Assembly: GCA_944391475.1 (NCBI GenBank)
Contig: CALXTR010000003.1
Coordinates: 50,823 to 114,822 of the forward strand
Length of the DNA: 64,000 nt
Direction: 5' to 3'
Source of the DNA: an uncultured Alphaproteobacteria bacterium
Lineage (GTDB): Bacteria; Pseudomonadota; Alphaproteobacteria; RF32; CAG-239
Positions 3,627-45,754 of the stretch are shown here, piece after piece (positions within the stretch are counted from its first letter, which is position 1; each line of letters opens with the position of its first letter). The notes under the pieces were generated by a model. The model was not told where the DNA came from. It saw only the letters and a program-made list of their open reading frames with translations, and did no database searches. Position numbers and translations under genes: made by a program.

Positions 3627-3684
3627 AACTCAACATAAAAAAAGAGGCCGACAAGCGACCTCATTTTTTATGGCGTACCCGGAG
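3627..3684. repeat. Partial direct copy of the tRNA-Arg 3' end plus its terminator (attR-like scar)
   Basis: ctcaacataaaaaaagaggccgacaagcgacctcattttttatggcgtacccggaggg is 57 of 58 identical to 3873-3930. Confidence 0.8.
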
Positions 3685-3872
3685 GGCTTGAGGATAAAAA
3701 CAACCGTTACTCCGGTTGTTTTTACCGCAAAAGGCGCAGTTTTCTTAACAAGCAAGGAATGCGTAAGCTTTCCGAAGCGAGATTAGGAAACAAGTGACCG
3801 CAGCGAGTTAGCGAACTTGTGAGCTTAGGAGCCAGAACGAACCCACGAGTGGGTTCAAATCCGCCGGGACTC

Positions 3873-3930
3873 AACATAAAAAAAGAGGTCGACAAGCGAC
3901 CTCATTTTTTATGGCGTACCCGGAGGGATT
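3873..3930. repeat. Direct repeat copy 2. It overlaps the genuine tRNA-Arg 3' end and its terminator.
   Basis: Same 58-mer as 3627-3684. Its 16 nt of tRNA 3' end continue into the full tRNA at 3912-3988. Confidence 0.8.
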
Positions 3931-3988
3931 CGAACCCACGACCCTTGGCGTCGGAGGCCAATACTCTATCCAACTGAGCTACGGGTAC
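3912..3988 (-). tRNA. tRNA-Arg (anticodon CCG)
   Basis: Reverse complement reads GTACCCGTAGCTCAGTTGGATAGAGTATTGGCCTCCGACGCCAAGGGTCGTGGGTTCGAATCCCTCCGGGTACGCCA. It has a 7-bp acceptor stem, a GTTCGAATC T-loop and the anticodon loop CUCCGAC. A hairpin plus T-run terminator follows. Confidence 0.85.
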
Positions 3989-23028: not shown

Positions 23029-23063
23029 TCAGCAATGCATAAATAAGATATGTAGATTTTAAA

Positions 23064-23357
23064 TTCTCCGTAAAATTGCTCTAGACGACCATTATACGAG
23101 CTTTAAGTAAAAGGTCGGATAGTGAGGAGAATAATAAGAAACCAGAAAAAATACGACTGAGTGTATAAAGACATACACGATTGGAGTATTTTTTCTGGCT
23201 TCTGTATTAGTCACCCGCTAGACGAGCTTAAAGTAAAAGTTCGGAGTTTTAGGTTAGTAGAGTAGTTTTTAGGGCGAGAAAAGCTTGAGCGTATATAGAA
23301 ATACGTGAGCTTTTCGAGACCCGCTAAAACTGCTCTAATAACCCAAAATACGAACTT
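23064..23357. repeat. Block of modular about 125 bp palindromic repeat units (standalone copy), directly abutting the lptG-like stop codon
   Basis: Shares ttctccgtaaaattgctctagacgaccattatacga, ctagacgagcttta, tattagtcacccgctagacgagc and the gagYgtatawagaaatacRYg hairpins with 30478-30748 and 44730-45016. Confidence 0.8.
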
Positions 23358-24464
23358 TTACCCGTCTTCCAAATGCAACAACACCGACACACTAATCATC
23401 GTGACAATCAAAGTCGGCGTCCACACCGCAAGCAAACCGGGAATATCCCCGTTCACCCCAAAAGCATAAATCAGCTGAGAGAGAAAATAGACCAAGAAAC
23501 CGGTAGAAATTCCCCCCACAATCAAATACATCACCCCTCCGCGCCGATTGTTAGGACGCAAAGCAAACACCGCTGCCACTAAAACCATCGCACACAGCAA
23601 GAAAGGAGATGCCAACAAAGACCAGTAACGGAGCTGATGCTTTTGAGCTGAAAAGCCTGATTTTTCATAAAAGCTGATAGTCCCAGGCAAATTCCAAAAC
23701 GAAATAGCTTCCGGCGGCACAAAATTTTCTTTGATTCTATCAATGGTCAGTTCAGTTTTATATTTAACATTGTTTGCGGTTTTAACCGGCTTTCCGGCCT
23801 CATAAATTTTGACATCGGCCAGCTCAAACATATTATTTTTAAGTGTTGCGGCAAAGGCCTGAATATTTTTGATTAGTTCGGAGTTTCGTCCTAGCTCCAA
23901 AATACTAACCCCATGCATCAGCAACACATTCTTATCTTGGCGAACTGATTTTGCCTGCAGCACCAAGAAACAATCTGCATCAATCGCCTCACGCAGCCAC
24001 AAGCCTTTTTCAGAAAAGAGCACCGCTTTAGGGTTACGGGTTTTGAAACGATAATCAAGTGTTTCATAAAGTTCATTCATCCGTGCGGCAATCGGATTAA
24101 TCACGGTGATATTGATTACCCCGATAATAAAGGTAGTCAAAAGCACCGGCGCCAAAAATCCCCAAATAGAAACTCCGGCAGCCCGAATAATCACAAATTC
24201 GTTACTTTTACTAACTTTCCAAAACGTAATCATTGCCGCAATCATCATCACAAACGGAAAGACCAGCTCAAGCGTTTTGGGCAGTTTGGTAATTGCCATT
24301 TCCATCACAAACCCAAAACCGGCATCATCACGTCCGGATGTTCGGCGCAGTAATTCCACCACTTCAAACAGCAAGACGATACCCATCACCATCATGAGCA
24401 CGCCAAAAAAGCTAAACAAGAGCTGCTTACTTAAATATTTTCCTAAAATCGACTTTGGGTTCAT
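23358..24464 (-). CDS. LPS export ABC permease, LptF/LptG family
   Basis: YjgP/YjgQ permease topology: six TM segments with a periplasmic beta-jellyroll insert. Whether it is LptF or LptG cannot be decided from sequence. Confidence 0.8.
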   Translation of the reverse strand: MNPKSILGKYLSKQLLFSFFGVLMMVMGIVLLFEVVELLRRTSGRDDAGFGFVMEMAITKLPKTLELVFPFVMMIAAMITFWKVSKSNEFVIIRAAGVSIWGFLAPVLLTTFIIGVINITVINPIAARMNELYETLDYRFKTRNPKAVLFSEKGLWLREAIDADCFLVLQAKSVRQDKNVLLMHGVSILELGRNSELIKNIQAFAATLKNNMFELADVKIYEAGKPVKTANNVKYKTELTIDRIKENFVPPEAISFWNLPGTISFYEKSGFSAQKHQLRYWSLLASPFLLCAMVLVAAVFALRPNNRRGGVMYLIVGGISTGFLVYFLSQLIYAFGVNGDIPGLLAVWTPTLIVTMISVSVLLHLEDG

Positions 24465-29546: not shown

Positions 29547-29576
29547 AATCCGCTTGCAAATTTTACGAGATAGGAT

Positions 29577-30050
29577 AAGCTAAAACTGCACTCGGGAGAG
29601 CCGAGTGCGGAGTGTAGTAACTCCTTGGTCAGAAAAGAACAACTCCTTTAATGGGGAGCTGGGGAAATAAGGCTATGCACGAATAACCCAGACTGTTTCT
29701 GTGTACAGTTTGGCCCCTAAATCCCCCTTAAAAATATATTTTAGTTTAGCTAGAAAAAGATAGATGCGAGCAAAATGGTGTAGCGGATAGTTCTTCATAT
29801 CCGCAAAGCATTTTACGAAGCAGATGCTTTTTATAGCTAAATCCGCAGGACAAGCCTCCAATCATCATCCTACTTGCCATTTTTCTTGGTGTTAGCAATA
29901 AGTAGCACCTGCGAAAAATGCCTGCGTATTATAATGATTGGGCGGCTTGCTAAAATATGTCTTTAAGGGAGATTTAGGGGCATCCTCCCCACCTTGATTT
30001 GTTGTCAAGGTGGTTTCTTTTTAACCGGAAACCTAAAGGGAGTTTAGAAC
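29577..30050 (+). promoter_or_regulatory. Structured leader of XRE module copy 1: conserved 5' hairpins and a terminator-like hairpin plus T-run immediately upstream of the RBS. It carries a nested MITE-like insert.
   Basis: Conserved gcactcgggagagccgagtgcggagt hairpin, ctcctttaatggggagc, and ccaccttgatttgttgtcaaggtgg followed by tttcttttt, 20 nt before the RBS. Homologous to 44170-44368. Confidence 0.45.
29714..29980. mobile_element. MITE-like 267-bp insertion with 19-bp terminal inverted repeats inside the leader; absent from the paralogous module
   Basis: Terminal inverted repeats cccctaaatcccccttaaa at 29714 and tttaagggagatttagggg at 29962 (18 of 19). Internal hairpins. No ORF. Confidence 0.45.
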
Positions 30051-30299: not shown

Positions 30300-30477
30300 C
30301 GTAAGCAAAAAGAGTTATTCCTCAATTGCTTTAGCAATATTTAAAGTCATCCCTCGTTTTTCGGAGAAAAACGTCCAGGGATCTTCGAATTTGTAAATAA
30401 AAAAACAACCTTCCGATTATTAAAAACTAACTCGAAGACCCCTTAACGACTACTAACGTAGTCGAGGGGTGACATTA
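30300..30477 (+). repeat. Conserved hairpin pair downstream of the XRE gene (copy 1)
   Basis: tcatccctcgtttttcggagaaaaacgtccagggatcttc and ccccttaacgactactaacgtagtcgaggggtgac are nearly identical to 44615-44729. Confidence 0.6.
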
Positions 30478-30748
30478 TCTAGACGAGCTTTAAGTAAAAG
30501 GTCGGATAGTGAGGGGAATAATAAGATTTCAGAGTGGCGGCGACTGAGTGTATAAAGAAATACACGGGTTCGAGCCGCCAGCTCGCAAAATCTGTATTAG
30601 TCACCCGCTAGACGAGCTTTAAAGTTCGGAGAATGAGTCGTATAGAGTAATTTCTAGGAGCGAAACAAACCCTAGCGTAGATAGACCTACGTGGGTTTGT
30701 TGAGTTCTCCGTAAAATTGCTCTATACGACCATTATACGAACTTTAAG
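30478..30748. repeat. Block of about 125 bp palindromic repeat units (module 1 tail), abutting the ftsH stop codon
   Basis: Units begin with ctagacgagcttta and contain the hairpins gtgtataaagaaatacac and cgtagatagacctacg. Ends with ccattatacgaactttaag. Confidence 0.8.
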
Positions 30749-32614
30749 TTAGAGTTCGGGGACAGAAGAATGCGTCCTCCTCTCTTCAGCTACCGGAACA
30801 TCTTCGCTGCGCTCCAACTTCTCGCCTTTGACCACTTGCTTGATTTCATCACCGGTCAGGGTTTCATATTCAATCAAGGCTTCGGCCAAAAGTTCCCATT
30901 CTTTGCGTTTGTCTTGCAAAATTTGCTTGGCTTCATTATAACCCGACATCACCAAGGACTTGATTTCGGCATCAACCAAACGGGCCGTATCTTCACTCAT
31001 ATTTTTGTTTTGAGTAACCGACTTGCCTAAAAATACTTCGCCCGAATTTTCGGCATACAACACCGGACCAAGCAAATCGCTCATTCCCCATTCGGTCACC
31101 ATAGAGCGCGCCAAGTTGGTTGCCGCCGCAATATCCGAAGAAGCCCCGCTGGTCACATCATCTGCCCCAAACTTGATTTCTTCTGCCACGCGTCCACCCA
31201 TCATAATTGCCAAGCGCGATTTCATTTTCTGCTTAGAATAAGAATATTGGTCTTTTTCGGGCAGTTGTTGCACCATACCCAAAGCCCGTCCCCGCGGGAT
31301 AATCGTTGCTTTGTGAATGGGGTCGGTTTCTTTAACATATAGCGAGCAAATCGCATGTCCGGCCTCGTGATAAGCGGTGAGTTGCTTTTCTTTCTCGTCC
31401 ATCGCCATTGACTTGCGCTCTGAGCCCATCATCACTTTATCTTTAGCTTCATCAAAGTCCTTAGAAGTAACTTTGTGCTTGTTTTTGCGCGCTGCTAATA
31501 AGGCGGCCTCGTTCACCAAGTTGGCCAAATCTGCCCCCGAAAACCCCGGAGTACCCCGAGCAATTACCGACAAATTAACATCTTTGGCTAGCGGCACTTT
31601 TTTGACATGAACTTTCAAGATTTCTTCTCGACCTTTTTTGTCCGGATTAGAAACCACCACCTGACGGTCAAAACGCCCCGGACGCAACAAAGCCGGATCC
31701 AAAACATCGGGACGGTTGGTTGCCGCAATCAAAATCACATTTTCATTGTCTTCAAAACCATCCATCTCCACCAACAATTGGTTTAAGGTCTGTTCGCGTT
31801 CATCATTACCACCGCCGAGTCCGGCTCCACGATGACGTCCCACCGCATCAATTTCATCAATAAACAACAGGCAAGGAGCATTTTTCTTGGCTTGAGCAAA
31901 CATATCCCGCACTCGCGAGGCACCCACACCCACAAACATCTCCACAAAATCTGAACCCGAAATTGAAAAGAACGGTACATTAGCCTCACCGGCTACTGCT
32001 TTGGCAATTAGGGTTTTACCGGTTCCCGGAGGTCCGACCAGCAACACGCCTTTAGGGATTTTGCCGCCCAAACGCTGAAATTTTGATGGTTCTTTCAAAA
32101 AGTCGATTACCTCTTCAAGCTCTTGTTTGGCCTCATCGGCTCCGGCCACATCTGCAAAAGTAACTTTTTTAGTATTTTCAATCAACCGCGCGCGTGATTT
32201 TCCAAAACTCATGGCTTTGTTGTTGCCTGAGCTTGCCTGACGCATAAAGAAAATCCACACCCCGATTAGCAAAATCATCGGGAACCAAGAAATCAGCACT
32301 CCCCAAAACGTATTAGCCGAAGTGTCTTCCGGACGAGCCTCCACTTTTGCTCCGCTGGAACGCAAGGTTTCAATCATGGTCGGGTCATATGGGGCATAAG
32401 TACTAAACTTGGTACCATCGGTTGCCGTACCCATAATATTTGCCCCCTCAATCATCACCTCGCTGATTTGCTTATTTTCGGCTTTACTCATAAAGTCCGA
32501 AAAAGCAATTGTCTGATAACCACGACTTTGCGGATTATTGCTAAACATATTCATAATTGCAGAAAGCAGCACGATTGCCACCAGCCAAATAATGATACTT
32601 TTTCCTGATTTCAT
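30749..32614 (-). CDS. ftsH: ATP-dependent zinc metalloprotease FtsH
   Basis: Two N-terminal TM segments, AAA+ Walker [12 protein letters not shown], and the HEAGHA zinc motif. Confidence 0.95.
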
Positions 32615-44077: not shown

Positions 44078-44100
44078 GCGATAAAAAAGGATTAAATTTT

Positions 44101-44136
44101 ACACTACTTACCGGAAAGGGTAAGTAGTGTTTTTTG
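44101..44136 (+). terminator. Rho-independent terminator after grpE
   Basis: acactacttaccggaaagggtaagtagtgttttttg. Confidence 0.75.
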
Positions 44137-44169
44137 TTGCAATTTTGCAAAAATACTTTAAGTTAGTAG

Positions 44170-44368
44170 ATGCACTCGGGAGAGCCGGGTGCGGAGTATC
44201 GAAACTCCTCGTATGAAAAAAATAGCTCCTTGAATGGGGAGCGACCGGAATAAGTGTGCCTTGCGCATAACGAAGAAGGTCGACTGACATACGCAGTTTC
44301 GAACTCCCCGCCTTAGGAAAGCTAGGGCGGTTTCTTTTTAACCGGAAACCTAAAGGGAGTTTAGAACC
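44170..44368 (+). promoter_or_regulatory. Structured leader of XRE module copy 2 (no MITE insert), with a terminator/attenuator hairpin directly upstream of the RBS
   Basis: Hairpin gcactcgggagagccgggtgcggagt, ctccttgaatggggagc, and gccttaggaaagctagggc followed by ggtttcttttt, then the identical RBS region aaccggaaacctaaagggagtttagaac. Confidence 0.45.
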
Positions 44369-44614
44369 ATGAGTCACAATTACCGCCGTCAAGCTTGGCA
44401 AGCCTGTCAGCAAGAGATTGGCGAACAAATTAAGAATATGCGCTTAGAGTTGGATTTACCTCCACAAATTGCCGCAGAACTTTTACATATCGGATTAAAC
44501 CAGCTTTTGTACCTTGAAAACGGCTATATTGGGAAAATGCAAATTACCGTTCTCCATGCACTGGCTTATAAATATCACTATAAGTTAAAGATAAGCTTTG
44601 AGAAAAAGAATTAG
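44369..44614 (+). CDS. XRE-family helix-turn-helix protein (81 aa), paralog 2
   Basis: LDLPPQIAAELLHIGLNQLLYLENG, with the C-terminus AYKYHYKLKISFEKK identical to paralog 1. Confidence 0.7.
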   Translation: MSHNYRRQAWQACQQEIGEQIKNMRLELDLPPQIAAELLHIGLNQLLYLENGYIGKMQITVLHALAYKYHYKLKISFEKKN

Positions 44615-44729
44615 AAAAAACAAAAGAGTCATCCCTCGTTTTTCAGAGAAAAACGTCCAGGGATCTTCCGATTAAAGAAACTAACTCGAAGACCCCTTGA
44701 CGACTACTAACGTAGTCGAGGGGTGACAT

Positions 44730-45016
44730 TACTTATGTATTAGTCACCCACTAGACGAGCTTTCATCTCCGGCACGGCTTAAAGTTCGGAGAATGAGTCG
44801 TATAGAGTGATTTCTTTGGCGATGACAATCCTAGCGTATATAGAAATACGTGGATTGGCTAAACAAGTTTCAACCTCTGGCACGGCTTAAAGTTCGGAGA
44901 ATGAGTCGTATAGAGTAATTTCTAGGAGCGAAACAAACCCTAGCGTAGATAGACCTACGTGGGTTTGTTGAGTTCTCCGTAAAATTGCTCTAGACGACCA
45001 TTATACGAACTTTAAA
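44730..45016. repeat. Block of about 125 bp palindromic repeat units (module 2 tail), abutting the fabG stop codon
   Basis: tattagtcacccactagacgagc, two copies of ggcacggcttaaagttcggagaatgagtcgtatagag, and the hairpins cgtatatagaaatacg and cgtagatagacctacg. Ends with ccattatacgaactttaaa. Confidence 0.8.
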
Positions 45017-45754
45017 TTAAATCATGGCCATACCACCATTAATATTAATAGTCTGTCCGGTGATATATTGAGCTTCATCAGATGCCAAGAAAGCAACCAC
45101 ATTGGCAATGTCTTGAGCTTCACCCAGCTTGCCTTCCGGAATTTTGGCCAACAAAGCAGCTTTCACATCTTCAGGCAAAACATCGGTCATCGGAGTACGA
45201 ATGAAACCAGGAGCAATCGAGTTAACCGTAATTCCGCGAGAACCAACTTCTTGAGCCAAACATTTGTTCATGGCAATCATACCGGCTTTTGAAGCAGAAT
45301 AGTTAGCTTGTCCGGCATTTCCGGTAACACCAACCACCGAAGCAATACCGATAATACGACCATAGTGACGTTTCATCATACCGCGAACGGCAGCTTTAGC
45401 CAATTTGAAACCAGCCGAAAGGTTAACATCGAGAACCAACTGCCAGTCTTCATCGCTCATACGAATAAACAAGTTATCGCGGGTCAAACCGGCATTGTTA
45501 ACCAAGATATCAATGCGGCCGAGTTTGTCTTCCACATTTTTAACCAAGTTTTTAACATCATCAGGGTTGGTCAAGTTAGCTACAAAGATTTCGACATTAT
45601 CACCGAGCTCAGCTTTGAGTTTTTCCATCGGCTCAGCGCGCATATCAGTCAAAGCCAAAATTGCACCTTGAGCATGCAAGGTACGAGCAATTTTATCACC
45701 CAAACCGCCGGCTGCACCGGTAATCAAAGCTACTTTTCCATCAAGTCTAAACAT
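45017..45754 (-). CDS. fabG: 3-oxoacyl-ACP reductase
   Basis: TGAAGGLG, NAG, and YSASKAG; 245 aa. Confidence 0.93.
   Translation of the reverse strand: MFRLDGKVALITGAAGGLGDKIARTLHAQGAILALTDMRAEPMEKLKAELGDNVEIFVANLTNPDDVKNLVKNVEDKLGRIDILVNNAGLTRDNLFIRMSDEDWQLVLDVNLSAGFKLAKAAVRGMMKRHYGRIIGIASVVGVTGNAGQANYSASKAGMIAMNKCLAQEVGSRGITVNSIAPGFIRTPMTDVLPEDVKAALLAKIPEGKLGEAQDIANVVAFLASDEAQYITGQTININGGMAMI

Follow-up and report, generated by a model that had tools for sequence, protein, structure and literature searches.

What is encoded in front of a small regulator gene that recurs, together with its upstream region, in uncultured gut Alphaproteobacteria? We studied this question for a stretch of 64,000 nt (in the following "the window"), i.e., positions 50,823-114,822 of the forward strand of contig CALXTR010000003.1 from an uncultured member of the Alphaproteobacteria (RF32; CAG-239; assembly GCA_944391475.1). 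The window harbors two copies of a module in which a leader precedes an open reading frame (ORF) for a small XRE-type protein; the -35 hexamer of copy 2 is found at position 44137 and that of copy 1 at position 29555. A sequence-only reading of the window had taken the leader for a functional RNA, and all four of its statements on sequence features hold at their places. The comparison of leader copies strongly supports a structured functional RNA with a terminator hairpin before the ribosome-binding site (RBS), whose structure is kept while its sequence drifts. The region as a whole is probably, if by no means surely, a compact expression module of promoter, structured leader RNA and small XRE-type regulator gene, in which the leader acts as a previously uncatalogued cis-acting attenuator or riboswitch-like element.

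Covariation and fold of the leader RNA

Leader copies were collected with nhmmer and subsequently with a covariance model (R1, cmsearch). Covariation was assessed on 21 aligned copies first and then on an extended set of 34 distinct copies from about 8 genomic contexts. With 21 copies, the share of paired cells is 96.3% and double-sided changes occur at 18 pairs. For the 34 copies, 98.4% of cells pair, a figure somewhat inflated by the fitting of this alignment to the covariance model, and 25/47 pairs change on both sides. Controls in which the pairing partners are slid by 1-3 columns reach 36-48% pairing. The notion of a functional structured RNA is thus borne out with more copies.

The same architecture results from an unguided RNAalifold prediction and from each of 21 single-sequence minimum free energy (MFE) folds. 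That is, the leader of about 168 nt up to the terminator end starts with a hairpin (H1), followed by two helices (Pa, Pb) that close a three-way junction with the arms H3 and H4, and ends in the terminator (Table 1). The main covariation lies in the two long-range closing helices, which the sequence-only reading had missed. A global pairwise alignment of the window copies misaligns the leader because of an insert in copy 1.

Helix Pa joins GGAGU-N-UNNNAACU with the distant AGUUNNNA-ACUCC. Its variable triplet reads AGU/ACU, CGA/UCG or CAC/GUG, and the two sides match in 21/21 copies, although the types of Pb, H4 and terminator that lie between or after the Pa strands are reshuffled among the copies. 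The long-range helix Pb (6-10 bp) is highly variable, and 6/6 of its pairs show double-sided changes in the extended set. Within H4, all 4 pairs of the outer stem covary (GACC/GGUC, GGCC/GGUC, UGGG/CCCA, UGGG/CCUA), as do 3/5 pairs of the inner stem, while the internal loop follows the family consensus GRAAUAAG/CGAAKAA and the inner hairpin is variable. For H1, pair 5-17 is UA in 11, UG in 7 and CG in 3 of the 21 copies, where pair 4-18 is CG or UG; UA is added at 4-18 in the wider set. The terminator stem, with 6/9 G-C pairs, comes in at least 5 sequence types, with double-sided changes at 6/9 pairs and an invariant U-tract. Covariation cannot test H3, given its invariant stem; its nearly invariant loop takes only the forms UUGAAUGG, UUUAAUGG, UUUUAUGG and UUUUAAGG. 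These 25/47 covarying pairs with invariant junction and loops are what a riboswitch aptamer would show, i.e., a conserved fold backed by covariation.

The leader of copy 2 folds with -74.1 kcal/mol compared to -48.5 +/- 4.1 kcal/mol for dinucleotide shuffles (z = -6.3); the respective value for the opposite strand is z = -4.0. The G.U pairs of H1 are compatible with the + strand only. G.U pairs and z-scores favor the + strand, to which the RNA is assigned because of the former.

Between the two window copies, H1 had been taken as a case of compensatory change. Pairing is indeed kept, i.e., pair 5-17 is U.G in copy 2 (44172-44192) and U-A in copy 1 (29587-29607; 3' arm CCGAGUGC), but the single-base difference is one-sided. 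The stems before the RBS had been called completely different, which is overstated as 5/9 pairs are common; the compensation itself is real, since the 4/9 differing pairs comprise three double-sided changes (G-C/A-U, A-U/G-C, G-C/A-U) and one U.G/U-A. The respective stem-loops are CCGCCUUAG-GAAAG-CUAGGGCGG (44308-44330) in copy 2 and CCACCUUGA-UUUGUUG-UCAAGGUGG (29989-30013) in copy 1. Both are terminator-like by scan and are followed by the same tract, as the sequence-only reading had said.

Local hairpins GGAGU/ACUCC and ACUG/CAGU were rejected as the main fold: they do not vary among the copies, and the helices with which they compete, Pa and Pb, are those that covary. They may represent an alternative state; the Pa 5' strand, for instance, can form a local hairpin with ACUCC at 44204-44208.

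Table 1. Features of module copy 2 (window positions; RNA letters for transcribed parts)
Feature	Position	Strand	Basis or remark
-35 hexamer TTGCAA	44137..44142	+	TTGCA invariant, sixth base A/T (TTGCAA/TTGCAT) in 21 aligned copies
-10 hexamer TAAGTT, 16-nt spacer	44159..44164	+	family forms TAAGCT, TAAGTT, TAATCT, TATTCT; T1, A2, T6 kept
H1, 5'-terminal hairpin, 8 bp, GCACUCGG-GAGAG-CCGGGUGC, pentaloop G(A/U)GAG	44172..44192	+	fully paired (100%) in the 21-copy set
Pa 5' strand: GGAGU, bulged A, UCGAAACU	44193..44206	+	pairs with 44295-44307 in RNAalifold and every single-sequence MFE fold
Pb 5' strand, CGUAUG in copy 2 (8-10 nt in most copies)	44210..44215	+	at least 8 sequence types, each with a complementary 3' strand of its own
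H3, three-way-junction arm, GCUCC-UUGAAUGG-GGAGC	44225..44242	+	no stem variation among 34 copies
H4: outer stem GACC/GGUC, conserved internal loop GGAAUAAG / CGAAGAA, inner hairpin	44243..44281	+	covariation
Junction strand GACUG, near-invariant	44282..44286	+	G(A/G)CUG in all copies
Pb 3' strand, CAUACG	44288..44293	+	complement of 44210-44215
Pa 3' strand, AGUUUCGA and ACUCC	44295..44307	+	pairs with Pa 5' strand; AACUCCC (44302-44308) can instead pair with Shine-Dalgarno region
Intrinsic terminator (predicted), 9-bp stem CCGCCUUAG/CUAGGGCGG, loop GAAAG, tract UUUCUUUUU	44308..44339	+	terminator scan; about 30 nt 5' of start codon
Post-terminator hairpin GGUUUC...GAAACC, overlaps last two G of terminator stem	44329..44350	+	arms invariant; loop AACCGG, AACUAG, UUUUCA
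Shine-Dalgarno region AAGGGAGUU, 7 nt 5' of start codon	44353..44361	+	invariant in all copies
ORF, 81 aa, probable divergent XRE-family helix-turn-helix protein	44369..44614	+	family-profile matches to XRE-type structures; Pfam matches sub-threshold

Promoter, terminator and alternative folds

A conserved element TTGCAA-N17-AAGYTA had been noted shortly before the first hairpin. It is present 6 nt (copy 2, 44137, AAGTTA) and 5 nt (copy 1, 29555, AAGCTA) before H1 and is best read as a sigma-70 promoter, i.e., -35 TTGCAA, 16 nt and -10 TAAGYT. For this promoter type, conserved hexamers at a distance of 16-18 nt with a variable spacer in between are expected; in all copies, the hexamers and the 16-nt spacing are kept and the spacer sequence drifts freely. 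The homology of the paralogues starts about 3 nt 5' of the -35 hexamer. A simple consensus scan missed the promoter: the -10 hexamer matches only 3-4 of the 6 consensus bases. We infer a transcription start at 44172, the first base of H1 and about 7 nt 3' of the -10 hexamer. In the aligned copies, no promoter-like conserved motif is seen in the stretch of about 30 nt between terminator and ORF, all of which is conserved.

The G+C-rich stem-loop that is followed by a U-tract has the sequence properties of an intrinsic terminator and is predicted as such. Beside it, the leader holds three GGAG-type elements (GGAGU, GGGGAGC and the Shine-Dalgarno (SD) GGGAGUU) and three CUCC-type elements (two AACUCC and one A/GCUCC). 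Within the MFE structure of the full-length mRNA, GGAGU pairs in most copies with the local ACUCC and AACUCCC with the SD, the GGUUUC/GAAACC hairpin forms and the terminator stem loses 2 pairs. The predicted unpaired probability of the SD in the full-length mRNA is about 0.05, which is low because of its pairing with AACUCCC. In a comparison over 21 full-length leaders, the mean difference between the Pa conformer and the SD-sequestered one is 2.1 kcal/mol of about -80 kcal/mol, where the latter is the MFE structure in 19/21.

Gene family, genomic contexts and neighboring repeats

The protein following the leader is probably a divergent XRE-family helix-turn-helix (HTH) protein. Comparison of the window proteins with Pfam gives sub-threshold matches only (HTH_31 and HTH_37, 13-19 bits vs. 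cut-offs of 24.6-27), and NCBIfam and PHROGs yield weak HTH or antitoxin-like matches only. Relatives from a divergent branch carry precomputed HTH_19/25/31 annotations. A family profile compared with structures matches the XRE-type protein 4ghj (E 4.8e-5) and, more weakly, DdrOC, ComR, ImmR and HigA2. The AlphaFold (AF2) model is poor (pLDDT, i.e., predicted local distance difference test, 75; pTM, i.e., predicted template modeling score, 0.46), and its Foldseek search against the PDB gave no match below E = 4; nothing was taken from this model. Ahead of the HTH, Arg6 and Trp10 are invariant in a basic N-terminus.

Relatives of the 81-aa ORF are few (about 60 at 90% clustering), and the look-up of their clusters returned no names. 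Five paralogues are found in one metagenome-assembled genome (MAG; uncultured Alphaproteobacteria, BRZ_DM bin47). The copies originate from uncultured Alphaproteobacteria MAGs and from several human-gut metagenomes (including the loci L064 and L114). Based on contigs of diverse relatives and a second, more divergent family branch, the gene stands alone between housekeeping genes in 8 or so contexts: after topA, grpE or an SDR gene, and beside atpH, lpxA, rpmI or proS.

The leader is present 5' of every homologue with enough upstream sequence (nhmmer; R1 with 143-199 bits). Within the window, R1 matches only copy 2 intactly (185 bits) and copy 1 in two pieces. A metagenome scan with an invariant 17-mer returned 79 loci, among which L064 and L072 are real and the others chance matches according to nhmmer/cmsearch. 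All 4 matches from a scan of viral contigs are chance 16-mers, i.e., no copy was found there. When compared with Rfam 15, the whole window yields only a tRNA-Arg at the gathering threshold, with the leader unmatched, and a scan of 44080-45030 at E<=10 leaves the leader (44172-44368) without any match.

We compared copy 2 with a locus of another species (L121) that shows the same gene order (glycogen-synthase, grpE, XRE, fabG, fabD). The leader is 87% identical on the nucleotide level, with 94% for the last 47 nt before the start codon, while the ORF reaches 55% (nt) and 32% (aa), compared to 81.5% (aa) for GrpE. On these sequences, the leader is far better conserved than the protein it precedes. 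XRE paralogues within one genome are 65-95% identical vs. the 32% for the positional orthologue (44369-44614 vs. L121 1501-1758); this looks like concerted evolution.

Positions 44140-45016 had been treated as one module. The RNA and its gene fall into this range, but 44615-45016 lies outside the RNA and consists of separate repeats that occur without the XRE gene too. After the XRE stop codon, a subset of copies carries a structured repeat GUCAUCCCUCG-[hairpin]-CGUCNAGGGAUC (44627-44673 and 30345-30391 in the window; L002, L004, L072, L085, L087, L106), which is found twice in tandem at some loci and has no U-tract. Its inner stem is CGUUUUUC/GAAAAACG in one form and CGAUUGC/GCAAUCG in another, which suggests covariation between the copies. 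A second hairpin, CCCCUUGACGACUAC-UAAC-GUAGUCGAGGGG (44678-44731 and 30424-30477), is 98% identical between the window copies vs. 74% for the ORFs and is found next to some XRE copies only. Furthermore, palindromic units of about 110-130 nt (AAAGUUCGGAGAAUGAGUCGUAUAGAG ... CUCUAGACGACCAUUAUACGAACUUU) that resemble miniature inverted-repeat transposable elements (MITE) or repetitive extragenic palindromic (REP) elements lie in tandem in intergenic regions (44732-45016, 30480-30760, 23059-23360), one of these sites being without an XRE gene. Their weak Rfam matches to a plant microRNA precursor on both strands are due to the long hairpin.

Elsewhere in the window, a 1013-aa ORF (49599-52640, - strand) holds a domain of about 155 aa twice, owing to an internal tandem duplication of 465 nt (49766-50065 and 50231-50530, 94% identical). 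A 62-nt direct repeat (3628-3689 and 3869-3930, 97% identical) holds a terminator-like hairpin, and its second copy overlaps the 3' end of a tRNA-Arg(CCG) gene (3912-3988, - strand).

Proposed mechanism, rival explanations and known systems

Promoter motif conservation, the covarying fold, the terminator and the linkage to the gene are shown by the sequences, whereas the operation of the switch, its effector and the direction of regulation are inferred. Transcription would start at about 44172 and the nascent RNA would form H1, after which Pa and Pb would clamp the three-way junction. The invariant unpaired nucleotides of the junction (H3 loop UUGAAUGG, GACUG and the H4 internal loop GGAAUAAG/CGAAGAA) presumably bind one shared effector, i.e., a metabolite or protein. 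Given the strong intrinsic terminator directly after Pa, most transcripts should end as an RNA of about 168 nt. Transcripts that read through could refold: GGAGU would go back to its pairing with the local ACUCC, which leaves AACUCCC available for the Shine-Dalgarno GGGAGUU, while the terminator stem-loop would become shorter and the GGUUUC/GAAACC hairpin would form. The XRE protein would thereby be gated twice, i.e., by termination and (probably) by RBS sequestration, and the effector would shift the balance between two near-isoenergetic folds.

If confirmed, a new family of structured RNAs with good support would be added for an uncultured and barely studied lineage of gut Alphaproteobacteria. 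Two things are unusual here: one and the same leader precedes all members of a multi-copy family of small XRE regulators, and its conservation by far exceeds that of the proteins. The same leader before all members, together with 87% nt vs. 32% aa identity, points to a common RNA-level input that controls a set of transcription factors. A bolder version, possible but on the whole doubtful, sees here a new riboswitch-like class: the invariant junction would sense a common signal, and strand exchange among the three GGAG and three CUCC elements would co-ordinately gate a paralogous XRE family that, in uncultured gut Alphaproteobacteria, has at least 5 members per genome. The 168-nt leader ending at the terminator would possibly double as a small RNA, and the conserved core of the module would be the RNA rather than the protein.

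Several observations weigh against the leader acting as such a switch. Its presumed switch elements (GGAGU, the three ACUCC/CUCC, the SD and GGUUUC/GAAACC) are invariant, so that covariation neither supports nor refutes the switch pairings. A search for an antiterminator covarying with the arms of the terminator gave none. Every variable segment belongs to other helices; termination may thus be constitutive. A riboswitch before a multi-copy transcription-factor family would be unusual, too. Furthermore, three types of chimeric leaders exist (L114-L117 together with L119; L122; L124), whose 5' and 3' halves belong to different types, such that the Pa triplet and Pb are mismatched; they fold into local hairpins. 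The L114 type recurs in at least 5 independent samples and is probably real rather than an assembly artefact. Finally, a 269-bp element sits in the Pa 3' strand of window copy 1 (29713-29981) and of L003 (2656-2924). The long-range helices are thus strongly favored but not obligatory in every copy.

The 269-bp element has 32-bp imperfect inverted ends, and its window and L003 versions are 98.9% identical as reverse complements with identical flanking junctions. The two versions lie at different chromosomal loci, and the corresponding loci of other strains (L002; L097-L101) are free of the insert. Either this segment is invertible, or a MITE was inserted in both orientations and spread by gene conversion. 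With its long-range helix broken by the insert, copy 1 is atypical and ill-suited as a reference for the intact RNA. The leaders combine module types in a mosaic fashion, which indicates gene conversion among copies. The mosaic copies, the natural chimeras with broken helices and the insert copy provide a ready-made mutational series on which helices matter.

The main rival explanation regards the leader as a small RNA in its own right, about 168 nt long and ended by the terminator, which would act in trans via base pairing or protein titration, with the XRE ORF as secondary leak-through. Its anatomy is typical for a small RNA, i.e., it has its own promoter, a 5' hairpin for protection and a strong terminator with U-tail; the RNA is far more conserved than the protein at orthologous loci (87% nt vs. 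32% aa), and invariant single-stranded segments including the CU-rich CCUU/CUCC internal loop could contact targets. In the loci examined, however, the RNA is never found without the ORF, no target was identified, and the near-invariant bases that link terminator and start codon are able to pair with the leader, as would fit cis action. We therefore consider the small RNA unlikely, if still to be reckoned with; it and the cis-acting leader are not mutually exclusive. Less likely again is an attenuator that depends on a protein, where binding of the XRE protein, or of another factor, to the nascent leader would favor read-through or translation as feedback. The candidate site, to be regarded with the same reserve, is the H1 stem with its GNRA-like pentaloop, contacted via the basic N-terminus with the invariant Arg6 and Trp10. 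Such binding would fit the invariant unpaired nucleotides common to all paralogues, the covarying H1 stem with its G(A/U)GAG loop, the two invariant residues R6 and W10, and the promoter spacer, in which no conserved palindromic operator is seen among the aligned copies. Resemblance is nevertheless its sole basis; the AF2 model is poor and the fold search uninformative, basic N-terminal arms of HTH repressors normally contact DNA, and protein family scans detected no RNA-binding domain.

The repeats could also act on the DNA level, where they would serve the XRE protein as operators or form the ends used in recombination or by mobile elements. GGAGT-N6-ACTCC and AGCTCC-N8-GGAGCT are indeed DNA palindromes with invariant arms, and the module is multi-copy and mosaic. 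This is very improbable when facing covarying helices with many G.U pairs (A.C on the other strand), asymmetric bulges and internal loops, a + strand that folds much better than the - strand, loci that are syntenic between species, such that the module is not recently mobile, and viral contigs without a copy. Hardly credible at all is classical attenuation by a leader peptide whose translation controls the terminator. The sequence-only reading had pointed to a conserved mini-ORF (MGS..NK), and both window copies have an ATG-initiated ORF overlapping the invariant motif: with the ATG within CTCCTTGAATGGGGAGC as start, copy 2 has the 17-aa frame MGSDRNKCALRITKKVD and copy 1 the 11-aa frame MGSWGNKAMHE. 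Conserved coding was not found, though. The ATG is preceded by AGCUCCUUGA instead of an SD, the ORF length ranges from 11 to 66 aa with variable stop position, the frame is once fused to that of XRE, and AAG replaces ATG in L121 and the L114-type copies. The amino-acid changes track compensatory stem changes, i.e., D/W and R/G fall exactly where the stem GACC/GGUC becomes UGGG/CCCA. The conserved, translatable short ORF of a leader-peptide attenuator is thus missing, and the mini-ORF is, on this sequence comparison, a by-product of the conserved RNA.

Among known systems, type III toxin-antitoxin loci (ToxIN) show the same order of parts, i.e., promoter, RNA, terminator and protein gene, where the terminator would set the RNA:protein ratio. 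This class was rejected: the leader has no tandem repeats and the protein is an 81-aa HTH protein, not an endoribonuclease. The c4 immunity RNAs of phages P1/P7 and the CI RNA of P4 are leader-encoded and pair with sites that overlap the downstream RBS, and their types differ by compensatory changes. Our leader likewise is an encoded structured RNA 5' of a regulator, with RBS complementarity and discrete covarying types of short pairing segments. In contrast, its covarying segments form intramolecular helices, and its loci are chromosomal and syntenic without phage context. A c4/CI-type immunity RNA was therefore rejected, given an Rfam scan without leader match for any family (c4 included), the housekeeping neighbors and viral matches that are due to chance.

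Within the literature, we found no description of the leader motif; one survey mentions structured RNAs near HTH-XRE genes. For human-microbiome assemblies, this survey (Fremin and Bhatt 2021, PMC8040213) lists 100 candidate structured RNAs in the neighborhood of such genes. The shared gene neighborhood is a likeness, and our leader motif occurs in human-gut metagenomes (L064, L114) as well. The leader core sequence was not found in the first 200 of the 408 supplementary files of PMC8040213, such that identity with those candidates is neither shown nor excluded. The survey differs in that it assigns no structure-function model.

Closest to the proposed cis-acting attenuator are riboswitches and attenuators with a terminator platform, e.g., those for purine and thiamine pyrophosphate (TPP), where a three-way junction is closed by P1. 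The leader differs from them by having no Rfam 15 match, no covarying antiterminator and no assigned ligand. It also precedes multi-copy small transcription factors instead of metabolic or transport genes, and some copies lack the closing helices. What it shares with them is a long-range closing helix around an invariant unpaired junction, a closing-helix 3' strand that directly abuts an intrinsic terminator, and a predicted alternative pairing that would involve the SD.

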